DNA from: Planctomycetota bacterium
Lineage (GTDB): Bacteria > Planctomycetota > UBA8108 > UBA1146 > JAJFFE01
Reading direction: 5' to 3'
DNA length: 64,000 nucleotides
NCBI GenBank assembly: GCA_046154185.1
Contig: JBJXGE010000003.1
Location: 21,144 to 85,143 of the forward strand
Shown here: positions 7,348 to 56,454 of the stretch, piece after piece
Numbering within the stretch: the first letter of the stretch is position 1
Layout of the letters: every line of letters begins with the position of its first letter
The notes under the pieces: model-generated
What the model saw: only the letters and a program-made list of their open reading frames with translations
Databases searched by the model: none
Told to the model about the DNA's origin: nothing
Position numbers and translations under genes: made by a program

Positions 7348-7470
7348 CATGCCCGAAACCGTCATCCCGCCCGCATCGCATGCCCGAAACCGTCATCCCG
7401 TCCGCATCGCATCCGCGAAACCATCAACCCGCCCGCACCGCATGCCCGAAACTTCAACCCTGAGTCATCG
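7348..7470. repeat. 31-bp direct tandem repeat, 4 copies (CATGCCCGAAACCGTCATCCCGCCCGCATCG consensus)
   Basis: Units at 7348-7378, 7379-7409 (1 mismatch), 7410-7440 (degenerate) and 7441-7470. The unit length is not a multiple of 3. The array is intergenic between convergent genes. Confidence 0.8.
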
Positions 7471-13480: not shown

Positions 13481-14061
13481 CTCAGCATCTTTCTGCTTTG
13501 AGGCCGGCGCGCTCGAGCGGGCTGACACTACCACGAAACTGCGCGAGCGCGAGCCACCAGCGTCACGTCCTCGCAAAGCGAACCCCGGCCGACACCGAAT
13601 CTTGACGGTCCTGTTTTGCGAAGTAGAAGAAGCTCGTCGCTTTCGATCGGAATTCTCCTCGGCAGCGGCGGCACGGCCTCCGGCCGGCTCGCCGATTCCG
13701 CAGGCAGGTAGCTAGGAATGTCGCTAGGAATGTAGCTCTCGGGCGGCCCCAGCCGACCGACAGCCGCCAAACACTGATCGCTCAAACTCAGTACCTGTAG
13801 TGCCAGCGAAGCACGATGGGCTCCACTTCCTTTGCAAAACTGAACGCGGCCACCGCCATGCACAAATTTCGTCCGGGGCTTGGCACGCCCGGGAACGGCG
13901 TCGAGTGCGACGGCGAGTGACGAGCGCGAGATCGGTGCGAGGTGCGGCGAAAGGATGTGCGTTGCGCGGGTCGAGCGCGCTCTCAGCTCGGCGCGCATTT
14001 CGCCAACGGAAAACGGGCTTGCGCCCGTTCCCGAATGGAAACTCTGGAAAGGACACAGCTC

Positions 14062-15045
14062 ATGCGCAGAATCGCGTTACTCCTGCTTTCTATTGCCGGC
14101 CTGATGACCGTTGGACTGTTCACGCGTGAGGCCGCTGCTCAGCTCGCGTACCCGAGTGGCGTCGAGGACTTCGAGTCACTCGTCGTCGGTGACAGTGTCG
14201 TCTCCATCGGTTGGATCGTCGTGAGCACGAGCCCGATGCCGAGCGACTTCGCTGTGATCGGCGCAACTCCTGGTTTCGCTTCCGCCACAGCAGTGCGCGT
14301 CGTCGACGTCGATTCCGGCGATGTGCAGAATCGTTTCTACAGTCCCGGCCTCCAGGCGCCCGTCGAATCAAATTACTCGTGGAGTTGGTATGTGAACTTT
14401 GAAACGCCGCCGCCGGGTGGTACTGCGGTCAAACCGCGGCTGACGATCCAGCACTTTGGAGTTGGATTCGTGAATTCCTGGGGGGTCGAGTTCGCGGACG
14501 ATGGCATGCGGTTGGTCGTCACCGGCAACGGCGGCCCGGCGGGTAGCGTGTTGCTGAACGGGCCGCCGGTCCTCGGGACCTGGCATCTGGTTGAGTTGTC
14601 GGTGGACTTCGATGCGGACACCGTGACCGCCGCGATCGATGGCGGCGTGCCCGCTTCGCTACCGATTGCGCTCACAGGTGATCCGACGCTCTTCCGCTTC
14701 TGTTATCGCGGTGAAGGCGTCGGCAACGTTGCGACTTTTCTCGTCGACCGGGTTTCGGTGGTCATCGATGAGGCGCCGAATTTCGTGCGCGGCGACTGCA
14801 ACAACGATGGCGGGAACGACATCGCGGATGCGGTGTTCGGTCTGAGCTTTCTGTTCAGCGCCGGTGCGGCCCCGGACTGCTCCGACGCGTGTGACGGAAA
14901 CGATGACGGCTCGCTCGACGTCGGGGACATGATTTCGATTCTTAGCGCGCTCTTCGGTGGCGGCCCACCGCTTCCCGCACCGAACTCATGTGGCCCGGAT
15001 CTAACTTCCGATTCTCTGACTTGCGATGCATTCAGTGGCTGTTAG
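14062..15045 (+). CDS. Secreted LamG/ConA-like jelly-roll protein with a C-terminal dockerin-like Cys-tail module
   Basis: AAGGA SD. Signal peptide MRRIALLLLSIAGLMTVGLFTREAAAQ. C-terminal FVRGDCNNDGGNDIADAVFGLSFLF...DGNDDGSLDVGDMISILSALFGGGPPLPAPNSCGPDLTSDSLTCDAFSGC, ending in a stop codon. Confidence 0.75.
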   Translation: MRRIALLLLSIAGLMTVGLFTREAAAQLAYPSGVEDFESLVVGDSVVSIGWIVVSTSPMPSDFAVIGATPGFASATAVRVVDVDSGDVQNRFYSPGLQAPVESNYSWSWYVNFETPPPGGTAVKPRLTIQHFGVGFVNSWGVEFADDGMRLVVTGNGGPAGSVLLNGPPVLGTWHLVELSVDFDADTVTAAIDGGVPASLPIALTGDPTLFRFCYRGEGVGNVATFLVDRVSVVIDEAPNFVRGDCNNDGGNDIADAVFGLSFLFSAGAAPDCSDACDGNDDGSLDVGDMISILSALFGGGPPLPAPNSCGPDLTSDSLTCDAFSGC

Positions 15046-15222: not shown

Positions 15223-18200
15223 TTAGGGAACGATCGTCACCGTCCCGCAGTACTTGTCCGTGGGAATCGCAGTGCCGGATGTCCCCGTCACCACTGTCGC
15301 GACCGGACCGGCGCCGCCTCCGCCGATCGTGTCACAGAAGCACACGTCGGTTGTCGATCCTGCAACTCCGAGAATCGAGTAGTGCGCACGCAGAATCCAG
15401 TAGCCGGCGCCGGGCGGAAGCGAGTCGACGCCGATGAAATCGACAACGACTCCCATCGTGACGCCGTCACCCGGAATGACATCGACCACCGTCAGGTCGG
15501 CTGGCATACCGCCCGAGAGTACGCCGGCCAGCGAAATCGCCTCCGCCGTCGTGATCTCGATCACCGCTGAATCGTGGCAGACGCCGAAAGACCAACCCCC
15601 TAACGCCGTGTCCGTGTCGAGCACGATGTCGATCGAGACCGCCGAACCCTGCGATCCCGTCGCGTCGGTCAGCAGCACCGCTGGTCCAGCGCCCATATTG
15701 ATGATCCCGACGTCCGTGTAGCCACCGACGACTGGCGAAGAAACCTCGACCAATGCCTGCAGAGTCTCGCTCCCGCTCACAAGGCTACAGAGCAGCTCGA
15801 GTGTCGTACCTGTAAGCTCGACATCGACGATTTGGAATTGACCAGACGCCGCGGAAACGGCGCTGAATGCGGTCCCGACTACACTGATGGAGGCGCCGGG
15901 AAGCGGCGCACCGCTCGAAAGCATCGTGAACCCGACGATCGTGGTGCGCGGAATCGCCGGAATGATGCGAACAACGATCGACGCCAACGCGCCGTTGTTG
16001 GTGCCGCTAATCAGCACGAAGCCGGGATTGAGGCCGGCTACCAAGCCGGTTGGCGACACCGTCGCGATGGCGGAATTGGAAATGCGATAGGTCGTGCACG
16101 GATCGCTCGAGAAATCCGCCAGACTGCCGTCCGCAAGTTCTCCCAAGAGTTCGAGCTGCGCCGTATCCCCGACTTCGATGATGCCGTAGGACGGAGTTCC
16201 CGGCAGCCGCGAAAACTTGAGCGACTCGGGGATGGGCGGCGGATCGGTCGAGACCGTCATCCCTTGGACATCGATGGTCTGGCCTTGCGCGATCCGGAAT
16301 GGGCTGCTTGTCGCGTAGTAGCTAACACCGCCCACCGTCTTGGTCGCAATGGCCCGCACGCAGTCGTCGCTGACGAAATCGGGCGGCGACCCGGGTCCGC
16401 TGGGACCAAATTGGTCGGGCGCGGAAACGTTGCGGACCTTGTACGTGCCATGTGTTCCGATCTGCGCGCTCTGGCCGTTGACGACAACTTGCCAGGTTTC
16501 GTCGAGCACGACGCGCGGCGGTGGCTGTGTCGCCCAAAGCTCGATGCCATCCGTGGTGCCGTCGTCGTCCGAGTCTTCGTCGAACGGCAGCGTGCCGAAC
16601 AGCCGCTCCTGAATGTTGTTCAAGGAGTCGCCATCTTGATCGAGCATCGCGTCGGCCGAATCGGTGGGGTCGAGTCCAACCTCTATTTCCCAGTCGTCCG
16701 GCAGGATGTCTTCGTCGGCATCCGGGTACATCGGCGGCGGCGGTCCACCGCCCGAGCCGAGCGCGAGCCCGCCGCATTCTTCGCATCGACACGCTTCGTC
16801 TTGCGCCGACGAGAAAGCTCCAAAGCCGCCGACAGCGACGGCGGCGGCATAGATCGCCGCTTGAATCGAGCACACTTCGAAGGGCGGCAGGCCAGGTGTG
16901 AATTGGCCGGCGCAGATTCCCAAGAGATCCAACAAGAAAATCCCGTCGCAAGCAAACTTGGCAGTGAGCGCGCCGCACGCGCAAGTGCCGTAACAAATAT
17001 CGTGCGTGTCGCAGGCGGGCGTGAAGCACACCTGCCACACGAATACGTACGGGCACTCGGGCACCAGGCCTGCCGCCCATGGCGGATCGGCCGGACCGCA
17101 GCCGTTCGGCTCCGGCTCGTACTTGCAGCACTCGCCGGTCGCCGCATACGGCGGGCAATTGCAACCCCAGCCCGCGATGGTGAGGCCGGCGCCCGGATCG
17201 CTATTGATGAAGGCGCCCTCGGCATCGACGGTGCCGGCGCTGACGATCTCGAATCGATTGTTGATCGGGTTATAGCTCAAGAAATACGCGATCGAACCCG
17301 GTGCGAGTCCGGAGAAGTTCGGGTAGCGGATCGAGAGCGGCGGATCAAAGTGCGCACCCGCTGGCTGCAGCGTCCAAGCAAACGGCGGCGCCGCGCCATC
17401 GGGAATCGGCATTGGGACGTTGTCGTGGTGCACAGCGTTGAGCGACAGCGGCACGCTATTTCCGGAACCGGTCGCCACGATGGTTCCGTTCGGCAAAGTA
17501 ATTTCTGTTTCTGCGGCGACCAAGACTTCCAATCCATCAATGCCGTTTACCGTGAGTACGACATCTTGGCTGCCATCGAACTGTTGCACGTTCAGCGGAT
17601 TTAGCCGCGGCAACAATATCGGCTGCGGGAGCGTGTTTTCGGCGTTCGGCACCAGCACGACCAGATACCCGATCGAGGGGAACGTGCCGATCGCGACACT
17701 TTGGCTGCCGGCCGTGGTCGCGGTGGCGCCGTCGATGAAGAGCTGCCCGGAGCCCGCGCTCGGAACTTCGCTGAACTCGAATTGGCCGTCCGGACTGGTG
17801 GTCGTGAGTAACGTCGATGCTCCGACAGTCAAGCTGCAGGTCGCACCGCCAATCGGCTGCTGCGCGTTGTCGAGTACTGCGCCGTGAAAACTCGTCGGAC
17901 GATCAAAGTCGCGAGCAATTCCGTAGATGGTGAAAGTCGCGACCTTCGACATATCGCCGCTGAGGCGCACATCGACGACGTTGACTCCCGGCTGTGCGCC
18001 GGCCACAAGAACCGCTTCCGCGTGGCCGCTCGACATGGTGAGAAACGGAAAACTTGAAAGTCCATTGATCGTGCCGCCGCCTTCGACGACTTGGTAGACG
18101 ACCGCATAGTCGCTGACTCCGTTGACCCCATCTGACACCCATACGCGCAGCGGCAGCGGCACCGGTGCGCCGGCTTCGACAAACTGGTTATTACCATCGC

Positions 18201-19485
18201 CGATATTTATCTGCGTCGCGGTGAGTGCGACGCCGCTCGCGCAAAAAACCGCGGCGCCGAGCACATCGGCCGACGTCGCGATCACGCGATTGATGGCCTG
18301 GCCGGCGGTCGAACCGATACCCCAGCGCGCGCTGGCGAAGCCCGCCGCGTCGGTGAAAACGGTGAACGTTTGCGCGCCAGTGGCCGCACCATCCGCATTC
18401 AGCCAGCCGTTATTGCGGTCGATACGAAACTCGACCAGTTTGCCGACGAACGGCGAGCCATCGGACTCCAATAGCCGCACGGTGATCGGCGCCGGCAGCA
18501 TCGACCGCACCGGTCCGGACTGCGCGTCGCCGGAGAACAGCGTGAGTGTGGGCACGCCGGGCGGCGGAATCACACGCGTGACGGTGCGCGACACGGTCAC
18601 GGAGTTGCCAAGCGCATCGGCGCCAACGATCTGCAAAAGCGTCGGTGTGCCGAGCGCGAGTGGCACGCTCGCGGCGAGGAAACTTCCGGTCGTGCCGAGG
18701 CCTTCGTACACAGTCGCGACCACGCCGTTGACCGTGACTGTCATAGGCAGCACGCCGCTCAAGAGATCGCTGATGGTCCCCATAACCGCGATGGTTTCGG
18801 TGAGGACTTGCTCGTCAGCGAACGGGTATTGGACCGACACGACCGGTGGCTGAGTATCCTGAATGATCATGATCTGCGCCGGTGCGCTCGCGAGTCCATT
18901 TGCATCGAGCGCCGTGACGTAGATGTTATTCACAGAGTTTTCAAGCAGCGGAATGCCCACGGCGTTGAAGCTCCCGCCGACAACCGGCGCCGTGATCACG
19001 CCAGCAGGCGAACTCGCGGCAACCGTCACAGCGCCGGCCGCTGCTCCGGAAACGGTGATGGTGAATTCGTCGGTGAACTGAAACAGCGGATTGAGCGTCG
19101 GCGCCGGCGGCGGCACGGGATCATCGGGACACGCTGAACCAGGGCCCACGCAATCGAGCGCATCGGCCGTGAGATCGATCCCGCACGAACCGAAAGGCGG
19201 AGGTGGCTGCGGCCCCGCCGAGAAGAGATAGCTGAGCAAGTAAATGGCATCGGCGATATCGAGCGCGCCGCTGTCGTTGGAATCGAGCGCATCGCGGCAG
19301 GTGAGTGGTCCGGCGCTGAACAAGTAACTCAGACCATGGATGGCGTCCGCGACGTTCAAACTTCCGTCGAGATTGGCATCGCCTCGCTTGAAGGTCCAGT
19401 CCCCGCGCGCCGCAGTTGGCAGCGCCGCGCACAGTAGCACAGCAATCAAAAGAGCAGCGAAAAGCGCACGCGTCGAGTGTCGCAT
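15223..19485 (-). CDS. Giant secreted protein (1420 aa) with an N-terminal dockerin-like Cys-tail module, multiple Ig-like/Big_2 domains and a Cys-rich region
   Basis: ATG at 19485 with AGGAGG SD 8 nt upstream. Signal peptide. The module directly follows (FKRGDANLDGSLNVADAIHGLSYLF...DSNDSGALDIADAIYLLSYLFSAGPQPPPPFGSCGIDLTADALDC). Big_2-like segment near the C-terminus. Confidence 0.8.
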   Translation of the reverse strand: MRHSTRALFAALLIAVLLCAALPTAARGDWTFKRGDANLDGSLNVADAIHGLSYLFSAGPLTCRDALDSNDSGALDIADAIYLLSYLFSAGPQPPPPFGSCGIDLTADALDCVGPGSACPDDPVPPPAPTLNPLFQFTDEFTITVSGAAAGAVTVAASSPAGVITAPVVGGSFNAVGIPLLENSVNNIYVTALDANGLASAPAQIMIIQDTQPPVVSVQYPFADEQVLTETIAVMGTISDLLSGVLPMTVTVNGVVATVYEGLGTTGSFLAASVPLALGTPTLLQIVGADALGNSVTVSRTVTRVIPPPGVPTLTLFSGDAQSGPVRSMLPAPITVRLLESDGSPFVGKLVEFRIDRNNGWLNADGAATGAQTFTVFTDAAGFASARWGIGSTAGQAINRVIATSADVLGAAVFCASGVALTATQINIGDGNNQFVEAGAPVPLPLRVWVSDGVNGVSDYAVVYQVVEGGGTINGLSSFPFLTMSSGHAEAVLVAGAQPGVNVVDVRLSGDMSKVATFTIYGIARDFDRPTSFHGAVLDNAQQPIGGATCSLTVGASTLLTTTSPDGQFEFSEVPSAGSGQLFIDGATATTAGSQSVAIGTFPSIGYLVVLVPNAENTLPQPILLPRLNPLNVQQFDGSQDVVLTVNGIDGLEVLVAAETEITLPNGTIVATGSGNSVPLSLNAVHHDNVPMPIPDGAAPPFAWTLQPAGAHFDPPLSIRYPNFSGLAPGSIAYFLSYNPINNRFEIVSAGTVDAEGAFINSDPGAGLTIAGWGCNCPPYAATGECCKYEPEPNGCGPADPPWAAGLVPECPYVFVWQVCFTPACDTHDICYGTCACGALTAKFACDGIFLLDLLGICAGQFTPGLPPFEVCSIQAAIYAAAVAVGGFGAFSSAQDEACRCEECGGLALGSGGGPPPPMYPDADEDILPDDWEIEVGLDPTDSADAMLDQDGDSLNNIQERLFGTLPFDEDSDDDGTTDGIELWATQPPPRVVLDETWQVVVNGQSAQIGTHGTYKVRNVSAPDQFGPSGPGSPPDFVSDDCVRAIATKTVGGVSYYATSSPFRIAQGQTIDVQGMTVSTDPPPIPESLKFSRLPGTPSYGIIEVGDTAQLELLGELADGSLADFSSDPCTTYRISNSAIATVSPTGLVAGLNPGFVLISGTNNGALASIVVRIIPAIPRTTIVGFTMLSSGAPLPGASISVVGTAFSAVSAASGQFQIVDVELTGTTLELLCSLVSGSETLQALVEVSSPVVGGYTDVGIINMGAGPAVLLTDATGSQGSAVSIDIVLDTDTALGGWSFGVCHDSAVIEITTAEAISLAGVLSGGMPADLTVVDVIPGDGVTMGVVVDFIGVDSLPPGAGYWILRAHYSILGVAGSTTDVCFCDTIGGGGAGPVATVVTGTSGTAIPTDKYCGTVTIVP

Positions 19486-19746
19486 CACAGGCCTCCTCCT
19501 TTTCGCAAAATCCATCGTCGCCCAATACACGCCATGCAGGCCTGCGAATCGTAGTCAGCGCAGCAAAAACCTACAAGTCAGCGGTCAAAAGCCCGCGGCA
19601 ACTGAGCCCCAATTAGCTCGGTCAATCCACGCAAGATCTTGCTGCCACTGGCCGCCAAGACGGCGTATTGCTGCCGCGCCGTCCGCCGTCGCACGCGAGG
19701 CGCCGCGGGCGGCGCGAGTTAAGGAGTCAGTGTCTTCGGCGTGATC

Positions 19747-19820: not shown

Positions 19821-21686
19821 TCACTGCATGCATCCCGGCGTACTCACGCCGGGGTCGAGGCCGGGATTCGGGAAGGGTGGGGGCGGCGGCGCCATGGATT
19901 GAAACAGGTACGCGAGCAAATAAGTCGCGTCGGAGAGGTCGATCGCGTCGTCGTCGTTGGCGTCGATTGCGTCGAAGCACATCGACGGCGTGCCCGTGTA
20001 GAGGACGCGCAGTTGCTCGATGGCGTCCGAGATGTCTATCACGCCATTGCGATTCGCGTCGCCGCGCACGAACGGAGCCAAGTATCGGTAGGCGGCGAAC
20101 GCGGTCGCAGCGGCGCTCGCTTGCGACACCGTCACGTCGACGGCGCCGACGACATGCGCAGGTGCGGTCGCTGTGATCGACGACGCGGTCTGCATCGTCA
20201 CCACCGCGGACGCACCCCCAAAGACGACGGCGAGTGGCTGCGCGGCATCCCAACCGCCGCCGACAATTGTCACGCTGTTGCCGCCTGCTACGGCGCCGAA
20301 ACCGGGAGCGACGCTCTCGATGGCAAGAACCGGCACGGTGCTCAAGTAGGTGTACGCGGCAACCAAGGTACTGGCGCCGCTCGGCGCCTCGACGAGGACG
20401 TCGACGACGCTCGCGGTCGCCGCGGTCGGCGCAATCGCCGCAATATGCGAGTTGTCGACGATGCTAAAACTCGCCGCGTTCAATCCAAAGCGAACGGTGG
20501 AGGCCGCGCCGAGATCGCTTCCGAAGATGTCGACAACGTTGCCGCCCGCGACGGGTCCGCTGGTCGGCGCCACCGAAGTGATGACGGGCGGCTGCGTCAT
20601 TGGCCCGCCGGCGACGAACGCGATCGCCGACGGCGTCGACAACAACGCGCCCGCGTCGTCGAAGTACGGCCGTAGCTCGCCGAGGTCGAGCGCGTCGCCA
20701 TCCGCGTTCAAGTCTTCCGCGATGTAGAGTCGATCGAGTGTGCCATCCGCGAGCAGCAGACGGCCCGGCGCTATGAGCACCGCATCGTTCGGATCGTGAA
20801 CAATGGAACCGGCGGCGGCGCCGTCGAGAAACACTCTCGCCTCGCCAGGGTCGAGCGCATCTCCATCGCCGTTAGAGTTCAGCAAGTACAACACGGTGCC
20901 CGTGTCCTCGTCGATGACATAGACACCGCCCGCGGCATCGACCTGGAGCGCGTCGATGTCCGTCACCGGCACGCCGCCGGCGATCGAGTAGAAGATCGTG
21001 GCCTCGAGCGCATCCATCGCATCGCCGTCGCCGTTCAAGTCGGCGAGTCGAAACACAATGCCGAACGTGCTGTCGCCGACGTAGACGAATCCCGTCGTGC
21101 TATCGATCGCGATGGACTCCGGATCCGTGATCGGCTCGGCGGGCGAAAGCGCCGCTGAGTCGTAGAAGACGCTGAACTCGCCATCGTCGTTCGCATCGCC
21201 ATCGGCGTTGTTGTCGCGCATGCGCAAAATGGCGCGCACGGTTGTGCTGTCGTCACAGACGTAGAGCGCGCCATCGCTGCCGAACGCCATGCCGCCCGGC
21301 GTGCCGAGGTCGAGACCGAGCGAACTGTCATCGAAGAACACGGTAATCTCGCCCGCGTCGTTCGCATCGCCGTCCGCGTTGAGATCCTCGAGCGCGAACA
21401 CCGCGTCGAGCGTGCCGCCATCCAGCAGCAAGAGACGATTGCCGTTGTGGAGCAAGTGATTGGCGCTCGACAAGTCGGGACCGCTCGAAGTGTCATCGTA
21501 GTAAACCGACACTTCCGTCAAGGGTTCGATGCTGCCATCGCCATTCAAGTCGACGAGACGATAGACCACATCGTCCGTCGAGTCGGCGACGAACGTCACA
21601 TCCTGCGCGCGCGTTGGGCCCACGGCCGCGAGCAGGAAACTGAGCACGACGAGCGTGAGCGCTCTTTGAGAGCTGGCAAGAAACAT
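19821..21686 (-). CDS. Secreted FG-GAP-like Ca-binding beta-propeller protein with two IPT/TIG domains and a C-terminal dockerin-like Cys-tail module
   Basis: Signal peptide MFLASSQRALTLVVLSFLLAAVGPTRAQD. Repeated DLNGDGxxD / EDLNADGDANDxGE loops. IPT motifs (PVITSVAPTSGPVAGGNVVDIFGSDLG, twice). C-terminal FVRGDANRNGVIDISDAIEQL...DANDDDAIDLSDATYLLAYLF...PPPPPF. Confidence 0.75.
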   Translation of the reverse strand: MFLASSQRALTLVVLSFLLAAVGPTRAQDVTFVADSTDDVVYRLVDLNGDGSIEPLTEVSVYYDDTSSGPDLSSANHLLHNGNRLLLLDGGTLDAVFALEDLNADGDANDAGEITVFFDDSSLGLDLGTPGGMAFGSDGALYVCDDSTTVRAILRMRDNNADGDANDDGEFSVFYDSAALSPAEPITDPESIAIDSTTGFVYVGDSTFGIVFRLADLNGDGDAMDALEATIFYSIAGGVPVTDIDALQVDAAGGVYVIDEDTGTVLYLLNSNGDGDALDPGEARVFLDGAAAGSIVHDPNDAVLIAPGRLLLADGTLDRLYIAEDLNADGDALDLGELRPYFDDAGALLSTPSAIAFVAGGPMTQPPVITSVAPTSGPVAGGNVVDIFGSDLGAASTVRFGLNAASFSIVDNSHIAAIAPTAATASVVDVLVEAPSGASTLVAAYTYLSTVPVLAIESVAPGFGAVAGGNSVTIVGGGWDAAQPLAVVFGGASAVVTMQTASSITATAPAHVVGAVDVTVSQASAAATAFAAYRYLAPFVRGDANRNGVIDISDAIEQLRVLYTGTPSMCFDAIDANDDDAIDLSDATYLLAYLFQSMAPPPPPFPNPGLDPGVSTPGCMQ

Positions 21687-21976
21687 GGAGCGAGCTGCCT
21701 TCCGGTAGATCGTTGGTGAGTGCGGGGGGTAGCCGCAGCGGGGTGCGCATGCCGAGGGGAGCAATTTGAGCGCCAGCTGGCCCACGCGATGCGCGCCGCG
21801 CAAGTGTCGATGACGAAGCAACTAGCCGGACGCCGCCGCTACGCTGTGGCGACCGCATCCGATCGCCCGGGCGTGGAACGACCGGAGCCGGGCGTTCATA
21901 TGAATAGGGCGGGCCCACGAAGCGTTAGGAGTACGAATTCGTCGATCTTGAGCCCGAGTCGAAGCGGTGAGGAGGA

Positions 21977-25242: not shown

Positions 25243-25398
25243 GACCGCAGATCCTAGGGCGCGCCCAGAGCATGGTCAAGCACCGACGCAAAGAGCCGTC
25301 GTTCCGCGGCAAGGAACCTTGAGCTTTGCACTCGCATGGGTTGCAATCGCGACTCGGTTTCAACCGGATCGATTTGCAAAGTGCCCGGAGGTGACGAG

Positions 25399-27495: not shown

Positions 27496-28041
27496 GTGGC
27501 TTGCGCAGACAGCAACAGAGATGAGAGCGATCGCCGCGCCGTCGCGGCGGCGCTCGATCACTGGCCGCGACTGCACGGTTTCGCCGCCGCGATTACCAAG
27601 GACTCGACGCGTGCGGATGATCTCTGTCAGACCGCCTACTTGCGGCTACTCGAACGCGCGAACACGATCGATTTCGACCGCCCGGTGCTGCCGCTGCTAC
27701 TAACCATCGTGCAGCGCGAAGCGGCGAGCGAGGCGCGGCGCGCGCGACCGCAGCCGCTCCCGGCTGACGACGGCGAGCGCGGGACGGCGCTTGTTGCCGA
27801 CAGCGGCGGCGAACCGTCCGAGTTGGCGGAGATCGCCGAGCGCCGAGTCGACATCCGCACGGCGCTCGAGACGCTGCCCGACAGTTGGCGAGCCGCGCTC
27901 TATCTCAAGGATGGGCTCGGCTGTTCCTATCGCGAGATCGGCGAAGTCATCGACGCGAGCTCCGACACTGTGAGGACCATGCTGCATCGCGCGCGTCGGC
28001 GCCTGCGAGCTCTTTGGACGGAGAGGACGGCGAGACAGTGA
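27496..28041 (+). CDS. ECF RNA polymerase sigma factor
   Basis: GTG start with AGGAG SD. Region 2 (DDLCQTAYLRLLERA) and region 4 (LPDSWRAALYLKDGLGCSYREIGEVIDASSDTVRTMLHRARRRL). Confidence 0.85.
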   Translation: MACADSNRDESDRRAVAAALDHWPRLHGFAAAITKDSTRADDLCQTAYLRLLERANTIDFDRPVLPLLLTIVQREAASEARRARPQPLPADDGERGTALVADSGGEPSELAEIAERRVDIRTALETLPDSWRAALYLKDGLGCSYREIGEVIDASSDTVRTMLHRARRRLRALWTERTARQ

Positions 28042-34028: not shown

Positions 34029-34044
34029 TGTGAATCCCTCGCCC

Positions 34045-37560: not shown

Positions 37561-39999
37561 ATGCGCGTTCGCGTGCGAGGTCGCGGCTTTCGAGCGTGGA
37601 TCGCCCTCTTCGCCTTTTCGGCGACGCTTGCCGGTGCATGCGTTTTGACGCCCGCCGCAGCGCAAGCGCCGATTCGCTACGACGGGCACGCGGTGGTGCG
37701 GGTCGCGATCGCGAACGAAGCGGAACTCGCACAACTGCTCGCGCTCAATCTCGACATTTGGACCGATGCGATTGGCATTGGCCCGCTCGACGTGCGCGTC
37801 GCTCCGGACGAATGGCCGAGCCTTTGGACGAGCGGGCTTCCTTTCGAGCCGCGTATCGTCGATGTGCAAGCGCTCATCGATGCCGCGACGGCGAGCAGCG
37901 CCGCCGCCGGCGCGCCGATTGGCGGCGGTCCCTTCGGTGGCGCACCGCTTGGCGGCGTCTCGTGGTTCGCGGACTACAAGACCTACGACGAGGTGCTCGC
38001 GCAGCTCGTCGAACTCGCGGCGGCGCGACCGGATCTCGTGACGCTCATCGATGTCGGGGTGAGCGTCGAGGGCCGGTTGATTCGCGCGGTGCGCGTGACC
38101 GGCACGGCCGGCTCAAACAAACCCGGCTTCTATATCGAAGGTTGTCAGCACGCGCGCGAGTGGGTCGCGGTGATGGCGCCGGTCTATGCCGCCTGGGCGC
38201 TCGTCGAGTTCTACGACCTCGACCCCGAAATCCACGCGTTGATGGACAGCGTCGAGTTTTTTATCGTGCCGATCGTGAATCCGGACGGCTACGTTTATTC
38301 GCACGCAGTCGATCGACTGTGGCGAAAGAACCGGCGGGTTAACGGCGACGGAACAATCGGCGTCGACTTGAACCGCAACTGGTCCTACGAGTGGGGTGGC
38401 CCAGGGTCGAGCCCCGCGACTTCGAGTCCGGTCTATCACGGCACCGGACCGTTTTCGGAGCCGGAGTCGAGCGCGGCGCGCGACTTCGTTCTGGCGCGAC
38501 CGCAAATCGCTGCGTTCCTCGATGTGCACAGCTACTCGCAGTTATTGTTGCAACCGTTCGGATACACGGTCGCGCTGCCGCCCGATCAAGATTTTTATCA
38601 CCCGCTTGGCGCGGAGATCACGGCGGCGATCGGCAGCGTCCACGGCGCGACCTACTTGCATGGGCCGGGCGGCCTCATTCTGTACGTCGCGAGCGGCACG
38701 GCGCAGGACTGGGGTTACGGCGTCGCCAGCGCGGTCGCGATGACGATCGAATTGCGCGACACCGGCCAATTCGGATTTCTGCTGCCGGCCGATCAGATCT
38801 TGCCGACGTGCGAGGAAGTGTTCGCGGGCTTGCGCGTGTTGGGGGACACCATCTCTCGCCCGTTCGCCTTCAATTTTCCACAGGGTCTGCCGGCGCGCGC
38901 GGCGCCTGGGGCCACGACGATGTTCCCGGTCGACGTGCACGCGATCGGCGGCGCCACGCTTGCGGCTGGGTCGCCGCGCATCCATACGCGCAGCACCGGC
39001 GGCGGCGCGTTCGTCGAATCGCCGCTCGAGTTCACGGGCGGTACGTTGTACACGGCGACGCTGCCGGCCGCGCCGTGTGGAAGTTCGATCGAGTTTTACT
39101 TCACGGCGGCGAGCGCGACGGGCGGCAGCGCAAGCGGTCCGATCGATGCGCCCGGCGAGGTGTATGCGACGCCGGTCGAGCTCGAGCTTGTTGCCTTCAG
39201 CGATGACGGCGAGTCCGAGCTTGGCTACGTCGTGTCGGGCGACGCGATCGCGGGAGTGTGGAATCGCGGCGTGCCGGCTGGCGGCGGCGATCGCGGCGAT
39301 CCGCCGTTCGACGCCGATGGCAGTGGGCAGTGTTATCTCACCGACTTAGCGGATGGCGACACCGACGTGGACGGCGGCAGCACGATTCTCACGTCGCCGC
39401 TTTTCGACGCGACGGGCGGCAACGCGACGCTCAGCTATTACCGGTGGTACTCGAATGTCGCCGGCGGCACGCCGGAGCAAGACGTGTTCGTCGTGGAAAT
39501 CTCGAATGACGGCGGGGGAAGTTGGGTCGTGCTCGAGGTCGTCGGACCCGCCGGGGCCGAGGTCCAAGGCGGTTGGATTGCGCGCAGCTTCGCAATCGCA
39601 GACACGCTAGCGCCCACCGCGGCGATGCGCGTGCGATTCACCGCGTCAGACGTGGCGCCCGGTTCGGTCGTGGAGGCTGGGGTCGACGGAATCGTAGTTG
39701 GTGTTTACGGCTGCCTCGCTGTGCCTCCGAGTTTCATACGCGGAGACGCGAACGCCGACTCGCATTTCAACATCGCCGACGCCGTGTTCACGCTCGTGTA
39801 TGTGTTCGGGGGCAACGCGAGTTCGTGCCAGCTCGCGCTCGATGCAAACGATGACGAAGCCGTAAACATCGCCGATCCAATCTTCTTGCTCACCCAACTC
39901 TTCGCGGGCGGCGCACCGCCGCCCGGCCCGTACCCGGGCTGCGGCATTGACCCGACGCCCGGATCGCTCACCTGTGATGCGTACGCGCCGTGCCCGTGA
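37561..39999 (+). CDS. Secreted zinc carboxypeptidase (peptidase M14) with C-terminal dockerin-like Cys-tail module
   Basis: M14 signatures: HAREW (Zn His/Glu), NPDGY, DLNRNW, HSYSQ. Signal peptide MRVRVRGRGFRAWIALFAFSATLAGACVLTPAAAQA. C-terminal FIRGDANADSHFNIADAVFTLVYVF...DANDDEAVNIADPIFLLTQLFAGGAPPPGPYPGCGIDPTPGSLTCDAYAPCP, ending in a stop codon. Confidence 0.85.
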   Translation: MRVRVRGRGFRAWIALFAFSATLAGACVLTPAAAQAPIRYDGHAVVRVAIANEAELAQLLALNLDIWTDAIGIGPLDVRVAPDEWPSLWTSGLPFEPRIVDVQALIDAATASSAAAGAPIGGGPFGGAPLGGVSWFADYKTYDEVLAQLVELAAARPDLVTLIDVGVSVEGRLIRAVRVTGTAGSNKPGFYIEGCQHAREWVAVMAPVYAAWALVEFYDLDPEIHALMDSVEFFIVPIVNPDGYVYSHAVDRLWRKNRRVNGDGTIGVDLNRNWSYEWGGPGSSPATSSPVYHGTGPFSEPESSAARDFVLARPQIAAFLDVHSYSQLLLQPFGYTVALPPDQDFYHPLGAEITAAIGSVHGATYLHGPGGLILYVASGTAQDWGYGVASAVAMTIELRDTGQFGFLLPADQILPTCEEVFAGLRVLGDTISRPFAFNFPQGLPARAAPGATTMFPVDVHAIGGATLAAGSPRIHTRSTGGGAFVESPLEFTGGTLYTATLPAAPCGSSIEFYFTAASATGGSASGPIDAPGEVYATPVELELVAFSDDGESELGYVVSGDAIAGVWNRGVPAGGGDRGDPPFDADGSGQCYLTDLADGDTDVDGGSTILTSPLFDATGGNATLSYYRWYSNVAGGTPEQDVFVVEISNDGGGSWVVLEVVGPAGAEVQGGWIARSFAIADTLAPTAAMRVRFTASDVAPGSVVEAGVDGIVVGVYGCLAVPPSFIRGDANADSHFNIADAVFTLVYVFGGNASSCQLALDANDDEAVNIADPIFLLTQLFAGGAPPPGPYPGCGIDPTPGSLTCDAYAPCP

Positions 40000-40218: not shown

Positions 40219-41892
40219 TCACGGGCATACCGAGCTTGTGCAGGCGAGCGTATCCGGTGTCGGATCGGCGCCGCAGTCCGTGGGTGGTGGCAGCGGCCCC
40301 CGCAGGGCGAATAAGGCCGTGAGTTGCGCGATAGCGTCGGAGATGTCGAGCGCGCCGTCATCGTTGCCATCGCAGCTATCTGAACAATCGAGTAGCGGCA
40401 ACGCGCCGAACAGGTACGCGAGCAGCGTGATCGGATCCGCGATGTTGATGCCGTCATCGCCATTACAGTCGCCGCGCTGGAATGGGAGCGACGACTCGCA
40501 CTCATCGGGAATGCCATTCAGATTGATGTCGGGGCTCGCGCCACTGAGGATGTCCTGGGCGTCGCCCGTGCCATTCTGATTGCAATCGGTGTCGCCGATC
40601 CGCAAGTAGTAGACATCTTGCTCGCCATTGAAGGTCGCCGCGTAGGCGACGTCGACGCCGACGAGGTCCGAGACCATATCGTAGTAGTCGCCGAGCTTCT
40701 GCTGCTGCGGCCAACCGAGATGCGGATCGAAGGCGATGCTCAGCGCTTGATTCGGCGACCAGCTCAGCCCGGCATCGAGCGACGAGCTATAGTAAAGCTG
40801 CGACCAGAACCCGCCCGGATTGGCGCGCGTGTCGTTCCAAATAACATCGAGTCGACCGTTGGGCGCCACCGCGAGCGTGCCGAACCACTGCCAATCGTTG
40901 CTCCCGAGCGGATCATCGTTTATGCGCACCGGTGGCTCGAAGGAGACGCCGCCATTGGTGCTGCGCACCAGATGCACGTCGAGCGGGTCGCTGCCAGGCG
41001 GATTGACCGAGCAGAGCACGTACACATAGCCACGCGTCGGGCCGGAGCTGTGGTCGACATCAATCCAAACCTGCCCGAGCAGTCCTCCGGGGTTGGGCCC
41101 GCCACCGTATACGAGCGCGCCGCCAAGATCGACCACCGTCGCGAAGTCGAAGGCGAGCGCCGCTCCGGGATCTGCGATGGTCGTCGACTTCGCCACCACG
41201 AACTCGTCGTACACCGGCGAACGTCGCCCGGCGATGTAGACTTCGCCATCCGGGCCAACGGCGACGACACCCCACACCGGCTGCTCAGGGATCGGCACCG
41301 GAGGCTCAAATGTCGCGCCGCCGTCGGTCGAGCGATTGAACCAGTTGTCGCCGCAGCAGCCAGCATAGTCCCACGCCGCGTAGATGTTGCCGTGCCCGGG
41401 ACCGCCGGTGCGATCGATGGCGATCCAAGCTTTGTCGCCTCCGTAGGCGTCAACACCTGTGTCCCACGTCGCACCGCCATCGAACGAGCGGAAAAGGTCG
41501 CACGAATAGCCGCCGCCGGCGGTGGTCAGGCTGTGGTAGTAGATGACGCCGTTGGCATCCGCCTCGAGCACAGGATCGGAGCGAAACACGCCCGGCTCGA
41601 TCACGCCGGGAAAAGTCCACGCAAGTCCGCCATCTATCGAGTAACCCCAACCTGCTTGGCGGAAATTGCTGGCGACCGTGTCGAATTGGCGCCAGCCGAT
41701 CGCGACTCGTAGCGGATTGGTCGGATCGACGGCGATCGACGGCTCGTTCGCGGCATCGCCGATCGTATTCATGCCGGCAGCATCGACGTTTACTTGCACG
41801 CTCACGAAACCGCCGAAGATCGATTGCGCATTCAGACGCATCGAGACTGCCAACAATAGCAGAACGAGTAGCGAGATCGGAGTGTTTCGCAT
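40219..41892 (-). CDS. Secreted BNR-repeat (sialidase/glycosidase-like) beta-propeller protein with C-terminal dockerin-like Cys-tail module
   Basis: Signal peptide MRNTPISLLVLLLLAVSMRLNAQS. BNR motifs SIDGGLAW, SFDGGATW, STDGGATF, STNGGVSF, LDAGLSW. C-terminal FQRGDCNGDDGINIADPITLLAYLF...DGNDDGALDISDAIAQLTALF...PLPPPTDCGADPTPDTLACTSSVCP, ending in a stop codon. Confidence 0.8.
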   Translation of the reverse strand: MRNTPISLLVLLLLAVSMRLNAQSIFGGFVSVQVNVDAAGMNTIGDAANEPSIAVDPTNPLRVAIGWRQFDTVASNFRQAGWGYSIDGGLAWTFPGVIEPGVFRSDPVLEADANGVIYYHSLTTAGGGYSCDLFRSFDGGATWDTGVDAYGGDKAWIAIDRTGGPGHGNIYAAWDYAGCCGDNWFNRSTDGGATFEPPVPIPEQPVWGVVAVGPDGEVYIAGRRSPVYDEFVVAKSTTIADPGAALAFDFATVVDLGGALVYGGGPNPGGLLGQVWIDVDHSSGPTRGYVYVLCSVNPPGSDPLDVHLVRSTNGGVSFEPPVRINDDPLGSNDWQWFGTLAVAPNGRLDVIWNDTRANPGGFWSQLYYSSSLDAGLSWSPNQALSIAFDPHLGWPQQQKLGDYYDMVSDLVGVDVAYAATFNGEQDVYYLRIGDTDCNQNGTGDAQDILSGASPDINLNGIPDECESSLPFQRGDCNGDDGINIADPITLLAYLFGALPLLDCSDSCDGNDDGALDISDAIAQLTALFALRGPLPPPTDCGADPTPDTLACTSSVCP

Positions 41893-42397: not shown

Positions 42398-44716
42398 ATG
42401 CGTGCACTCGTACGGAGATGCTGTGTTGGCTCGGCGGTTGTATTGCTGCACTCGCTTGTGATCGTCATCGCTGTGCTGTCGACCACATTGGCGAGCGGCC
42501 AATACGCAACGACTTTCGACGCGCTCTTGGGAGATGCTGACGGCGAAACTCTGGTAGGTCAGGACTCCTACTATAATCCTGTCCCAGCGACCAGCGTCCC
42601 AGCGCTCGTCTATACCTATGCCGGCAACGTTCTCGGCGTGCCGGTGAACCCCACTGGCGGCGACAAATTCGCGGCTGGTGTCGGACCAGGTGGAAGCGTA
42701 TTCATGCGCACACAGCGCGACCTGGCATTTGGCGCCGGCACCGGCATTTGGTCGATCTCCTACGATGTCTCGGTGTCATTCATTGGTACCTTGCCGACGG
42801 CTCAAAATGCCGGCAGCGTTTCCACGCAAACGTTCCCGGGCGACAAAACTTTTATCGCCCTCAGCACCTGGACTGATATCACTACGGCCGCGGCCTGGAA
42901 CGCAGACTACGTTTGGTTCAACGCGACGGGCACGCAGCTACAGGAAATCGTGCCAGACCCGGCTTTCCAAAACCTCGTCGCGAACCAGTGGTATCGTCGA
43001 ACAACAATATTTAGTCTCGACACTTACCAGATACTCGAGGTCAGAATCACCGATCTCACGACCGCCATCACGACGAGCTACTCGCCGCCGGATCGCTACC
43101 TGTTCGGCGGCACGGCCTTCGCGCCGCCGTGCGATGGTTACCGCATTTTTGCCGGTGCCGCAACTGTCGCGGGCAATGTCGTCGCGTATGACAATGTCGT
43201 GATCGAGCAGATCATTCCGCTCTGCGCACCCATTGCGAGCTTAGTCTGCAGCGTAGACTGCGGTGCCGGCACCGTCGCGTTGAGCTGGCCCGGTGGGGCC
43301 TACACTGCGATCGAGGTTGAACGCGACACCATCTTGATTTCCACGCTCCCCGGAGGCGCCACCGGATTCGTCGACAATCCTGGTGTTTCCGGTAGCTATT
43401 CGTATCTGGTGCGCGGCATCTGTGCAGGCGGACCGGCGCTTTCAGGTCCGGTTTGCAATGCAGAAATCGCGATCGGCGGCGTCCAAGAAAACATCATCTG
43501 GGCGGGCGAGTCGGCCGCTCAAATCGATAGCGTGGCAGCGCTTGATGCGGCGATGACTGCGGCCGGCCTCGCGCACACGGTAGTGGCCGATTTGGGCAAC
43601 CTACCGTGTGGCGCAACGCTCACGCCATCAAACCGCGTGTGGGGCGCCATGGGTAGCTTCCCCAGCAATCACCCGATTTCGGTGGCCGAAGGCATGTTGC
43701 TGCGAGACCACGTTTTGGCGGGTGGCCACGTTTACATGGAGGGTGGCGATATTTGGGGTTTCGATCCGGCCACCGCCTTCAATACGGTCGATGGGATCGC
43801 CTCTCCGGCGGTCGACGGCGGCGATGACTTCACCGCCATGGTCGGATCGAGCTACGATGACGCCCAGTTCGCGGGATTGAATGCTGCATACAACCAGGAC
43901 CAAGCGGGCAACGACTGGACCGATCAGATCGCCGCCACCGCGACTGACATGGCGGGACCGAACGCCGGCGTGGTTTGGAATCGTGACGTGGGCGGCGGAG
44001 TCGCGGGTTACGGCACGGGCGTTTTCCACGCCAGCGACCAGCCTTTTGGTCGGGTGCTCAACCAGTCGTGGGAGTTCGGCGGCTACGGCGGCGACCAAAA
44101 CGCGCTGATACTCGCGTATGACGATGCGCTCCGCCGAGTGGGATCGCCGAGCGACCTTACTTGTTCGCAAGTGGGGACCACGGGTTCGGTGGATCTCGCC
44201 TGGACCAACCCGCAGAACTACGACAGCGTCAACGTCTACGTCGACGGTCCGCTCTACACCACGCTTGGCCCGCAGGCGGCGGGTTCGGCGTCCGCAACAA
44301 TTTCCGGTCTGTCAGTCCCCGGAGCTCACACCATTTGCATCCAAGGTGTGGTCGCGGGCGAATTGTCGCGACAAGTCTGCTGCATGGTCACTTTGGTCGC
44401 CCCGCCGGTCGACCTGATCAAGGTCGCCGACATCAATGGCGACGGCGCCGTCAACGTCGCAGACCCGATTAACATCCTCTCCGAGTTGTTCCCACCCATG
44501 CCTGGCCCGTCAGGCGGGTTCATAACTCTGGCCGGATGCCCAGCGGGCTTCGACTGCAATGGCGACAACATGGTCAACATCGCCGACCCGATTTTCTTGC
44601 TCAGTTGGCTGTTCTCGATGGGGCCGCCGCCGCCGGCCTGGCTCGGCACCGTGCCAGCTTGCAACCCAGCGAGCCCGATCCTCGGCTGCTTGTTCCCGCC
44701 GACTTCCTGCGATTGA
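42398..44716 (+). CDS. Secreted large protein with FN3-like Cys-containing repeats and C-terminal dockerin-like Cys-tail module, hypothetical
   Basis: Signal/TM N-terminus. Two FN3-like segments. C-terminal INGDGAVNVADPINILSELF...DCNGDNMVNIADPIFLLSWLFSMGPPPPAWLGTVPACNPASPILGCLFPPTSCD, ending in a stop codon. This is the most divergent copy of the module. Confidence 0.7.
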   Translation: MRALVRRCCVGSAVVLLHSLVIVIAVLSTTLASGQYATTFDALLGDADGETLVGQDSYYNPVPATSVPALVYTYAGNVLGVPVNPTGGDKFAAGVGPGGSVFMRTQRDLAFGAGTGIWSISYDVSVSFIGTLPTAQNAGSVSTQTFPGDKTFIALSTWTDITTAAAWNADYVWFNATGTQLQEIVPDPAFQNLVANQWYRRTTIFSLDTYQILEVRITDLTTAITTSYSPPDRYLFGGTAFAPPCDGYRIFAGAATVAGNVVAYDNVVIEQIIPLCAPIASLVCSVDCGAGTVALSWPGGAYTAIEVERDTILISTLPGGATGFVDNPGVSGSYSYLVRGICAGGPALSGPVCNAEIAIGGVQENIIWAGESAAQIDSVAALDAAMTAAGLAHTVVADLGNLPCGATLTPSNRVWGAMGSFPSNHPISVAEGMLLRDHVLAGGHVYMEGGDIWGFDPATAFNTVDGIASPAVDGGDDFTAMVGSSYDDAQFAGLNAAYNQDQAGNDWTDQIAATATDMAGPNAGVVWNRDVGGGVAGYGTGVFHASDQPFGRVLNQSWEFGGYGGDQNALILAYDDALRRVGSPSDLTCSQVGTTGSVDLAWTNPQNYDSVNVYVDGPLYTTLGPQAAGSASATISGLSVPGAHTICIQGVVAGELSRQVCCMVTLVAPPVDLIKVADINGDGAVNVADPINILSELFPPMPGPSGGFITLAGCPAGFDCNGDNMVNIADPIFLLSWLFSMGPPPPAWLGTVPACNPASPILGCLFPPTSCD

Positions 44717-55350: not shown

Positions 55351-56454
55351 TCACGGGCACGGCGGAAAGGCGTCGCAGGTCAGCGCGCCGCTGGTGGGGT
55401 CCGCGCCGCACGCGCTCGGAGGCGGCGGCAGCGGCGCCCCGGCGACGAACAGCGCCGACAGCACCGAGACGGCATCCGCAATGTTGACACTCTCGTCGTC
55501 GTTGGCGTCGGCAGCTTGGGCGCATGGTAGGAATCCCATGCTGAACAGCCCGCTCAAGATGCTGATCGCATCGGCGATGTTGAATGTGCCGTCCGCGTTG
55601 GCGTCCCCGCGGCGGAACTCGTCTTGTACCGGGCCGGCTGTGAATGCGCCGCCCCAGACGAACAGCCCGCAATCGTAGTTGTCATCTGTGCTGTCTGCGA
55701 CTGCAAACTTAAGCGTGTTTGCGCCGGGCACGACTTGAGCCGTTGCGCTGAGATATCCCATGACGCCGAAGTAGTCCGGTGCGAGCGGATAGGCGTCGAG
55801 AACGAAATCCGGCGGCACGAAGGTGAAATCGCTCGACATCGCAATCACCGGGTTGCCATCAATCTTGAAGAGTCGTTGTTCGCCGTTGGCGAACACTGCG
55901 GCCACGTCGGGATAGGGCGACATGCCAAAACCGTACTCCTGGCTGCCATAGGCGGCGAGCAGCGAAATCTCTCCGGCGCTTGCCGAGTTGAACTCGATCA
56001 CCAGGCTCGAGGCATCGCCGGTGCTGGTGCTGAATCCAAACTCGCTGAGTAGCGCATCGAGATCGGCGTCGCCGGGTAGACCGAGCGAGCGGCCTGGAAA
56101 CGGGAAGTAACCGGGGAGCGTCGGCTGGATGTCGACGGCTCCGCCTGAGGTCAGCAACAAACCGGGCGGCTCGCCGGCGAAATATGTATCTCCCGGTGTA
56201 TACACTCCCGCACCGATCAGTGCGCCGGTGTACGTCACCGAAGTAATACTTATTCCGGGCGCGCTCACGAAGGCGAGTGTGAGCGCGAGATCGGTCGGCG
56301 TTGCTGTGGGAAGCGTCGTTACTGAAACGACGGGTTGCGCAGGCGCTGTGGAGACGAGTACGAGTCCCATTGCAAGCGCGAGCCCAAGACTTATAAGCCC
56401 CCGCCAACCGGCTGTGCGGCGTGCGCAGCACTCGAACTTTGTGAAGGCAAACAT
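55351..56454 (-). CDS. Secreted beta-rich protein with C-terminal dockerin-like Cys-tail module
   Basis: Signal peptide [42 protein letters not shown]-terminal [25 protein letters not shown]...[52 protein letters not shown], ending in a stop codon. Confidence 0.75.

Follow-up and report, generated by a model that had tools for sequence, protein, structure and literature searches.

Predicted dockerin and cohesin domains at opposite ends of a giant planctomycetal protein suggest an enzyme-bearing adaptor

Why does a module that lies at the extreme C-terminus of six proteins encoded in one stretch of planctomycetal DNA stand at the N-terminus of a seventh? The stretch, referred to below as the window, comprises 64,000 nucleotides of a Planctomycetota metagenome-assembled genome (MAG). 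A six-frame motif search detected this two-loop module in seven of its open reading frames (ORFs), and only in the largest of these, hereafter the giant (15223-19485, minus strand, 1420 amino acids [aa]), is it N-terminal. The giant is identical to NCBI ACKVX7_00810 (P0001) and carries the label 'hypothetical protein' there. A preliminary description of the window had compared the module to a dockerin. Cohesin-dockerin assembly is best understood in the cellulosomes of Gram-positive bacteria, and elsewhere the modules are mostly unexplained annotations. We found that the giant combines, by homology and predicted fold, a dockerin directly after its signal peptide with a cohesin-fold domain at its C-terminus, and we consider it probable, with the binding predicted from sequence, that the protein acts as an enzyme-bearing adaptor within a non-cellulosomal network of planctomycetal cohesins and dockerins. 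The coordinates of the features are collected in Table 1.

The interval 19140-19407 (minus strand) translates to RGDWTFKRGDANLDGSLNVADAIHGLSYLFSAGPLTCRDALDSNDSGALDIADAIYLLSYLFSAGPQPPPPFGSCGIDLTADALDCVGP, beginning RGDWTFKRGDANLDG and ending ALDCVGP, exactly as the preliminary description quoted it. This interval begins two residues early, inside the c-region of the leader (R27, G28), and stops short of the last conserved Cys119-Pro120; the complete module spans aa 29-120 (window 19126-19401, ~92 aa). The preliminary description had allowed for a copy deprived of its Ca-loop residues, and both loops proved intact. Loop 1 (D36-A-N-L-D-G-S-L-N-V-A-D47) has D36, N38, D40, and D47, and loop 2 (D68-S-N-D-S-G-A-L-D-I-A-D79) has D68, N70, S72, D76, and D79, with Ser, not Asp, at position 5. 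The giant's copy shares 43-52% identity with the six others over ~92 positions, and the 13 invariant columns of the seven copies include the Ca-loop Asp/Asn residues and two Cys. Scored with a profile hidden Markov model (HMM) of all seven copies, the one at the N-terminus reaches E=2e-40, and the match is therefore not due to chance. A recent duplication from a neighboring gene was also considered and rejected, as identity to the giant's copy is just 43-52% and other MAGs keep the same arrangement.

Beyond the two loops, the module ends in a tail that is kept in all window copies and family-wide (consensus PPPPPxxxCGxDPTxxxLxCxxxxxCP), and in the C-terminal copies its Cys-Pro forms the final two residues of the protein. 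No PDB sequence matched the last ~30 residues in the profile search. With the Cys of the inter-repeat linker, the module has four cysteines, and it is plausible that two disulfides staple the tail.

The module directly follows what appears to be a typical Sec leader, as the preliminary description had proposed. The leader, MRHSTRALFAALLIAVLLCAALPTAARG, has a basic n-region and a hydrophobic core of 16 residues (maximum Kyte-Doolittle 3.2 over 10 aa), and a rule-based check (-3/-1 rule) permits cleavage after A26 or G28. The same rule gave no candidate site between G28 and Phe32, the first conserved residue of the module, which argues against cleavage inside it, the other contingency that the preliminary description had raised. 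The leader-module junctions of orthologues are equivalent (AYS/DWTF, AVA/DWTF, AEG/QWTF, and IHA/DSMF, with the slash at the junction). A lipoprotein leader was rejected, as there is no lipobox and Leu precedes Cys19. The ATG at 19485, which is the NCBI start of the 1420-aa protein, is preferred over the GTG at 19530 because of the Shine-Dalgarno sequence GGAGGAGG 6 nt upstream.

It could be asked whether the N-terminal copy is an artefact, either of mis-assembly or of a frameshift that joined the giant's ORF to the 3' end of a gene upstream. MAG contigs can be chimeric, and the longest start of the ORF finder (GTG 19530) differs from the annotated one. However, upstream of the module lie a signal peptide and a strong Shine-Dalgarno sequence, the reading frame closes no more than 23 codons further upstream of ATG 19485, and the same junction of signal peptide and dockerin, DWTFxRGD, recurs in four independent assemblies, so that we regard an artefact as scarcely credible.

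The position of the module within proteins was examined more broadly in an HMMER search of 1.84 billion representative proteins, clustered at 50% identity, which gave 38,911 clusters at E<=1e-3, of which 23,173 remained at E<=1e-10. Near-full-length copies in the best 150 family proteins, a set biased toward multi-copy proteins, were N-terminal in 123 cases, internal in 148, and C-terminal in 137, and the best proteins often carry 2-12 copies each. In 122 fetched proteins, the first copy begins between aa 12 and 70 (median 27.5), and in 117 of them it comes after a hydrophobic leader; 'signal peptide then dockerin' is thus a standard arrangement in the family rather than a peculiarity of the giant.

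This distribution bears on the possibility that the module serves as a C-terminal signal for sorting or secretion, comparable to PEP-CTERM, the C-terminal domain (CTD) of the type IX secretion system (T9SS), or LPXTG-like signals, with the giant's N-terminal copy as a non-functional product of shuffling. Six of the seven window copies are indeed at the extreme C-terminus, ending in the conserved Cys-Pro, and one of them belongs to a choice-of-anchor L protein. Against this, four orthologues (P0002-P0005) retain the N-terminal copy, which is intact in the giant, the signal peptide-dockerin arrangement is recurrent, and the module has a predicted dockerin fold and lacks a hydrophobic or basic tail. 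A strictly C-terminal sorting signal is excluded by the positional distribution of the copies, in agreement with the preliminary description, and the wider proposal, which is largely refuted by the same data, appears very unlikely.

If the module is instead an interaction unit, is it a dockerin? Direct scans with Pfam and NCBIfam of the whole giant, or with Pfam of its isolated segments, identified neither a dockerin nor a cohesin, and the domain identification therefore needed family profiles and predicted structures. The best PDB matches of the seven-copy profile (A1) are solved type I dockerins, 2y3n_B (8.7e-6) and 1daq_A (5.9e-5), followed by 2mte_A, 4dh2_B, 4fl4_A, and 6kg9_A, and the dockerin matches span profile positions 7-61, corresponding to the two loop-helix repeats. 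Pfam Dockerin_1 (PF00404) was matched by 8 of 16 family members scanned singly (best E 5.6e-5), and two sister copies in the window reach it at E 0.0028-0.016, below the cut-off. The predicted structure of the module, with helices at model residues 20-32 and 52-64, superposes on dockerins only. By homology and modeled fold, we therefore consider the N-terminal module to be a genuine dockerin with a lineage-specific, proline-rich and cysteine-containing tail, as the preliminary description had suspected in calling it a dockerin-like interaction unit; physical binding to a cohesin is predicted from sequence.

Clostridial type I dockerins (2Y3N_B; 1DAQ/2MTE of Clostridium thermocellum CelS; PF00404) likewise consist of two tandem 12-residue D-x-N-x-D-G-...-D Ca loops, each followed by a helix, and the two repeats of the window dockerin are near-symmetric, as in dual-binding-mode type I dockerins. 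Unlike the clostridial modules, those in the window add the ~30-aa tail (PPPP and CGxDPTxDxLxC...CP) and have a conserved Cys in the inter-repeat linker. Their host belongs to a marine Planctomycetota lineage, the giant's copy lies at the mature N-terminus, and the cargo consists of peptidase, BNR, TIG, and phospholipase A2 (PLA2) proteins, not cellulases.

The opposite end of the giant provides the candidate counterpart. The last 166 aa looked cohesin-like by eye, and sequence comparison with PDB chains, with the single sequence as well as with a 4-sequence profile, returned only noise. In a Foldseek search with the predicted structure, however, the top 50 matches were all cohesins (best E 9.4e-8), and aa 1255-1420 are modeled as the nine-stranded beta-sandwich jelly-roll of ~140-150 aa that characterizes cohesins. 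Pfam Cohesin (PF00963) was matched by 6 members of an 18-member family alignment (best E 7.6e-5), and no other Pfam family was matched by more than one of the 18. The family has the signature GWSFG(V/L)CHD, which we take to correspond in position to the motif G-[FY]-Q-F-x-L-x-Y-D found in classical cohesins. Judged by family profile and predicted structure, aa 1255-1420 are a previously unannotated cohesin-fold domain. A profile search also found P0047 and P0048, small proteins composed of a signal peptide, a cohesin domain, and a dockerin (SP-Coh-Doc). The preliminary description had considered the giant a scaffold-like partner with possible repeated receptor modules in its Ig-like region. 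A single cohesin-fold receptor is present at the C-terminus, whereas the Ig-like region holds no such array, and no second cohesin was detected in the window by phmmer and two HMMs at maximum sensitivity; 'adaptor' is thus the better description.

The signal peptide (aa 1-28), dockerin (aa 29-120), and cohesin (aa 1255-1420) are consequently joined in one protein predicted to be secreted, and this SP-Doc...Coh layout is not restricted to the window. Three orthologues from other Planctomycetota MAGs and marine metagenomes (P0002, P0003, and P0004; 51-59% identical to the giant) all have it, including the C-terminal domain. A fourth, P0005, has the signal peptide and dockerin followed by a different C-terminal half.

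A tight association of the two folds emerged from a scan of 185,579 species genomes with a back-translated DNA pattern for GWSFG[VL]CHD, for which we estimate about four chance matches. The signature was found at 39 loci, nearly all in Planctomycetota or Planctomycetia MAGs, several genomes having it on multiple contigs. ORF and HMM analysis of these loci yielded 66 cohesin ORFs, 50 of them complete, and 49 of the 50 also carry a dockerin. Coh-Coh-Doc is the most frequent architecture (35 of 50), followed by Coh-Doc (10), Coh-Coh-Coh-Doc (2), and single cases of Doc-Coh-Doc, Doc-Coh-Doc-Coh-Doc, and cohesin only. Cohesin-dockerin genes often form tandem clusters of 3-5, with five ORFs at L036, four at L033 and L002, and three at L011, L017, L024, and L026. 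The Paraprevotella locus L008 has no cohesin ORF and is probably a chance match; the 'Proteobacteria' locus L006 and the 'Bacillota' loci L002 and L033 encode Coh-Coh-Doc proteins and look mislabelled or mis-binned rather than accidental. In addition, many of the best dockerin-family matches have a cohesin-like domain between dockerin copies.

Candidate partners for the giant exist in the same genomes. The window's own MAG encodes an SP-Coh-Doc protein, ACKVX7_15435 (P0200), and the MAG with orthologue P0002 (JAJFFE01) has genes for both Coh-Coh-Doc and Doc-Coh-Doc proteins as well. The giant's cohesin has a mean identity of 31% to Coh1 and 27% to Coh2 of the Coh-Coh-Doc proteins, a difference too weak to assign a partner. 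The dockerins themselves fall into two subtypes. Most copies, among them the giant's and most of those on enzymes, are of the GDAN...DANDD form. The other form, GDCN...CDxN (for example, GDCN...CDGN), is marked by an additional pair of cysteines; it predominates among Coh-(Coh)-Doc proteins and also occurs in P0200 and window ORFs 13942-15045 and 40219-42153. As with type I and type II dockerins, the subtypes may, speculatively, correspond to two specificities.

Several observations weigh against an adaptor function. The homology of the giant's dockerin and cohesin rests on family profiles and predicted folds, both domains being below Pfam reporting thresholds: no Dockerin_1 match was obtained for the giant's copy at E<=0.1, with the whole protein or the isolated segment, and aa 1255-1420 gave no match at E<=10 in Pfam or PDB sequences. 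The confidence of the cohesin model, which derives from a 7-sequence alignment, is moderate (pLDDT, the predicted local distance difference test, 73.7). Dockerins greatly outnumber cohesins, with 7 versus 1 in the window and 38,911 clusters versus 39 loci, and many dockerin bearers may lack a cohesin partner. No cohesin protein with a recognizable cell anchor was seen among the proteins found at loci L001-L039, and a Sec leader alone takes a protein only to the periplasm in a diderm. The giant gene has neighbors on both sides that encode C-terminal dockerins, in the window as well as in the two orthologous loci fetched, and this is treated as weak evidence because dockerin genes are so dense here; the flanking genes may mirror background density rather than linkage.

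The numerical imbalance and the absence of an anchored cohesin protein among those examined would suit a different role, in which the module, as a Ca domain independent of cohesins, anchors proteins at the cell surface or binds a ligand, for example a glycan of the envelope or a component of the S-layer. On this view, the giant would be tethered to the cell through its N-terminal copy, leaving the cohesin-fold domain with some other role. The rarity of the cohesin signature, confined as it is to a subset of Planctomycetota MAGs, points in the same direction, as does the choice-of-anchor L protein among the bearers, since that class is defined by interchangeable anchoring tails; moreover, non-cellulosomal dockerins without known partners are common. 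By contrast, the presence of this dockerin in 49 of 50 complete cohesin ORFs, the alternating Doc-Coh-Doc architectures, and the conserved SP-Doc...Coh layout constitute a pairing that is hard to explain unless the two folds interact, and we consider cohesin-free anchoring unlikely.

If the giant is an adaptor, its function can be pictured as follows. The protein would be exported by Sec, leaving the dockerin as the mature N-terminus, and this dockerin would plug, in a Ca-dependent manner, into a cohesin on another protein, for which the SP-Coh-Doc protein ACKVX7_15435 is a candidate. At the other end, the cohesin would receive a single dockerin-tagged protein, six of which are encoded in the window, and the long Ig-like stalk would space out the PLA2 catalytic domain described below. 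The giant would thus be both cargo and socket. We infer the binding itself, its Ca dependence, the pairing of partners, and the extracellular location from sequence. A bolder extension, prompted by the near-universal fusion of cohesin with dockerin, the tandem gene clusters, and the lack of a conventionally anchored cohesin protein among those examined, is a closed, self-assembling cohesin-dockerin lattice or daisy chain, in which giants are polymerized head-to-tail or woven in and display swappable lytic cassettes (PLA2 here, a VanY-like peptidase in P0004). Together with dockerin-tagged peptidases, it would form a surface 'attack/digestion' organelle of a diderm, unlike the hierarchical, anchored cellulosome. 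This extension is doubtful.

After the dockerin module, the preliminary description had placed about 1300 aa of Ig-like domains. Ig-like and beta-sandwich domains are present (PDB 7quz_AAA, for instance, matches aa 1101-1185), but the region also includes a PLA2 domain and thrombospondin-type-3-like repeats, and the cohesin accounts for its end. The profile of the cysteine-rich segment following the motif GWGCNCPPY (A6) matches the Streptomyces PLA2 1faz_A (E 5.6e-9), as well as 7ygk_A, 4aup_A, and 8k1w_A, and a weak Pfam PLA2G12 match falls in the same segment. The motif C-D-T-H-D-I-C-Y (aa 825-832) aligns with C-A-R-H-D-F-G-Y of 1faz_A, with the His-Asp dyad kept. From these alignments, the giant looks to carry a secreted prokaryotic/fungal-type PLA2 domain, predicted to be catalytic. 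It aligns over ~85 residues with the enzymes of Streptomyces violaceoruber (1FAZ) and Tuber borchii (4AUP), C-x-x-H-D being conserved; unlike them, it forms part of a multidomain protein of 1420 aa and contains more cysteines.

It is worth noting that the region preceding the PLA2 domain (aa ~608-780, …HHDNVPMPIPDGAAPPFAWTLQPAGAHFDPP…GWGCNCPPY) is nearly unchanged in P0002-P0005 and P0007-P0009. The homologues are alike up to GWGCNCPPY (aa 772, window 17146-17172, minus strand) and diverge after it, and this conserved-then-divergent junction resembles that of polymorphic toxins. Where the giant has PLA2, P0004 has a VanY/M15-like segment (Pfam E 1e-4, below the cut-off), although its dockerin and cohesin remain at the N- and C-terminus, respectively. 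The C-terminal end of P0008 is a PLA2-like domain, and the tails of P0005, P0007, and P0009 are different again.

Table 1. Features of the giant gene and the other dockerin-bearing ORFs of the window, with window coordinates; aa numbers refer to the giant.
Feature	Position	Strand	Support
Shine-Dalgarno sequence GGAGGAGG, 6 nt upstream of ATG 19485	19492..19499	-	read from upstream sequence
Predicted Sec-type signal peptide, aa 1-28, MRHSTRALFAALLIAVLLCAALPTAARG	19402..19485	-	n-region, core, -3/-1 sites; rule-based
Predicted dockerin core, aa 29-91: two Ca-loop/helix repeats, Cys63 in linker	19213..19401	-	
Lineage-specific module tail, aa 92-120: PQPPPPF, then C101-G-x-D-x-T-x-D-x-L-x-C112 ... 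C119-P	19126..19212	-	
Ig-like domain (Glucodextran_B-like), aa 214-304, within Ig-like stalk aa ~125-600	18574..18846	-	PF09136 E 1.6e-6
Highly conserved region, no known family, aa ~608-780, ending GWGCNCPPY	17146..17664	-	no Pfam match
Predicted secreted-type PLA2 domain, aa ~805-895, motif C-D-T-H-D-I-C-Y	16801..17073	-	profile A6 match to 1faz_A
Acidic thrombospondin-type-3-like Ca-binding repeats, aa 922-982, tentative	16540..16722	-	NCBIfam throspo3_MtsD E 0.086, weak
Big_2 Ig-like domain and CarboxypepD_reg-like beta-sandwich, aa ~1101-1224	15814..16185	-	PF02368 3.5e-6; PF13620 6.9e-11
Predicted C-terminal cohesin-fold domain, aa 1255-1420, signature GWSFGVCHD	15226..15723	-	
C-terminal dockerin of ORF 13942-15045, Cys-pair subtype GDCN...CDGN	14770..15042	+	HMM E 6e-37
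C-terminal dockerin of ORF 19821-21821 (Ca-repeat propeller-like region and two TIG domains)	19824..20084	-	HMM E 2e-37
C-terminal dockerin of M14 zinc carboxypeptidase ORF 37507-39999	39721..39996	+	PF00246 2.1e-79; HMM E 8e-41
C-terminal dockerin of BNR/Asp-box protein ORF 40219-42153, Cys-pair subtype	40222..40494	-	HMM E 2e-36
C-terminal dockerin of ORF 42398-44716, divergent first repeat, long insert	44405..44713	+	HMM E 4e-34
C-terminal dockerin of choice-of-anchor L protein ORF 55351-56454	55354..55629	-	NF038133 1.3e-15; Dockerin_1 E 0.0028; HMM E 6e-41

The cargo attached to the other dockerins of the window comprises an M14 carboxypeptidase, BNR, TIG/propeller, and choice-of-anchor L proteins, and two proteins of unknown type. 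One of the copies, at 44405-44713, has a first repeat without the F-x-R-G-D lead-in, has KVADINGDG, and carries an inter-repeat insert ~8 residues longer than in the other copies. The 666-aa protein of ORF 19821-21821 (minus strand) consists of about eight D-L-N-(A/G)-D-G-D Ca-loop-like repeats, which give weak NHL and EF-hand matches, then two IPT/TIG domains, and then the dockerin; NCBIfam names its TIG region a choice-of-anchor Z repeat.

Other genes in the window include one for an 1808-aa bacterial alpha-2-macroglobulin (57173-62599, plus strand) with MG2, bMG3, bMG5, bMG6, bait region, TED, and bMG10; such a protein traps proteases, and its gene shares the neighborhood of those for the secreted peptidases. 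A selenocysteine-specific elongation factor, SelB (25336-27333, plus strand), with GTP_EFTU, SelB beta-barrel, and winged-helix domains, is also encoded, and the organism therefore probably makes selenoproteins. At 30342-36237 (minus strand), a resistance-nodulation-division (RND) efflux pump (AcrB/CusA-like, 1261 aa) adjoins a CusB/HlyD membrane-fusion protein with three heavy-metal-binding domains, probably forming a metal efflux operon. In addition, two zf-HC2 anti-sigma-like proteins and a complete sigma-54 (RpoN) gene are found at 7465-8859 (minus strand), 27885-29165 (plus strand), and 11362-12756 (plus strand).

How does the giant compare with known cohesin-dockerin systems? Like the adaptor scaffoldins of cellulosomes, it has a dockerin and a cohesin on one polypeptide that is predicted to be secreted, and an N-terminal dockerin has a precedent in the Lachnoclostridium sp. 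MSJ-17 scaffoldin (Bacillota), in which an N-terminal Doc1 is combined with two cohesins (PMC11557425). It differs from these scaffoldins in having one cohesin and ~1100 aa of Ig-like domains and a PLA2 domain between the modules. Because the predicted catalytic domain lies between dockerin and cohesin, the giant would be an enzyme as well as an adaptor. Moreover, nothing links it to cellulose, and no anchoring scaffoldin was identified. The dockerin bearers are M14 peptidase, BNR, TIG, choice-of-anchor L, and PLA2 proteins, and Pfam and NCBIfam scans of those in the window gave no glycoside hydrolase (GH) or carbohydrate-binding module (CBM) matches, so that the system does not qualify as a cellulosome.

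Non-cellulosomal cohesin and dockerin modules have long been recognized (Peer et al., as cited in PMC6461901), and a closer parallel is the 'planctosome' that Andrei et al. (2019) proposed in freshwater Nemodlikiaceae from sequence analysis alone (PMC6461901). Its adaptor, composed of a 26-aa signal peptide, a dockerin, an HYR domain, and a cohesin, was proposed to bind dockerin-tagged M14 and M12B peptidases (PMC6461901). The giant shares this module order, from signal peptide and dockerin through a middle part to a C-terminal cohesin, and a dockerin-tagged M14 carboxypeptidase is encoded at 37507-39999, 18 kb from the giant gene. In contrast to the published description, from which the likeness is drawn, the middle part is Ig/PLA2 rather than HYR, and the planctomycete lineage is a different one.

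The locus provides a concrete case in a diderm marine planctomycete, where hypothetical-protein annotations hide two recognizable interaction domains and one catalytic domain. Should the predicted binding of the pairs hold true, the 2019 'planctosome' hypothesis would stand on firmer ground, the frequency with which secreted proteins in these genomes end in the module would be explained, and new orthogonal Coh-Doc pairs would become available for protein-assembly engineering. Overall, the kind of system is already known, and N-terminal dockerins on cohesin-bearing scaffoldins also occur in Bacillota. What is new is a cysteine-tailed dockerin subfamily, a predicted cohesin family that standard models miss, a PLA2 domain built into the putative adaptor, and a near-universal Coh-Doc fusion in the lineage, and the interest of the locus lies mainly in the unusually 'closed' Coh-Doc network that these features indicate.

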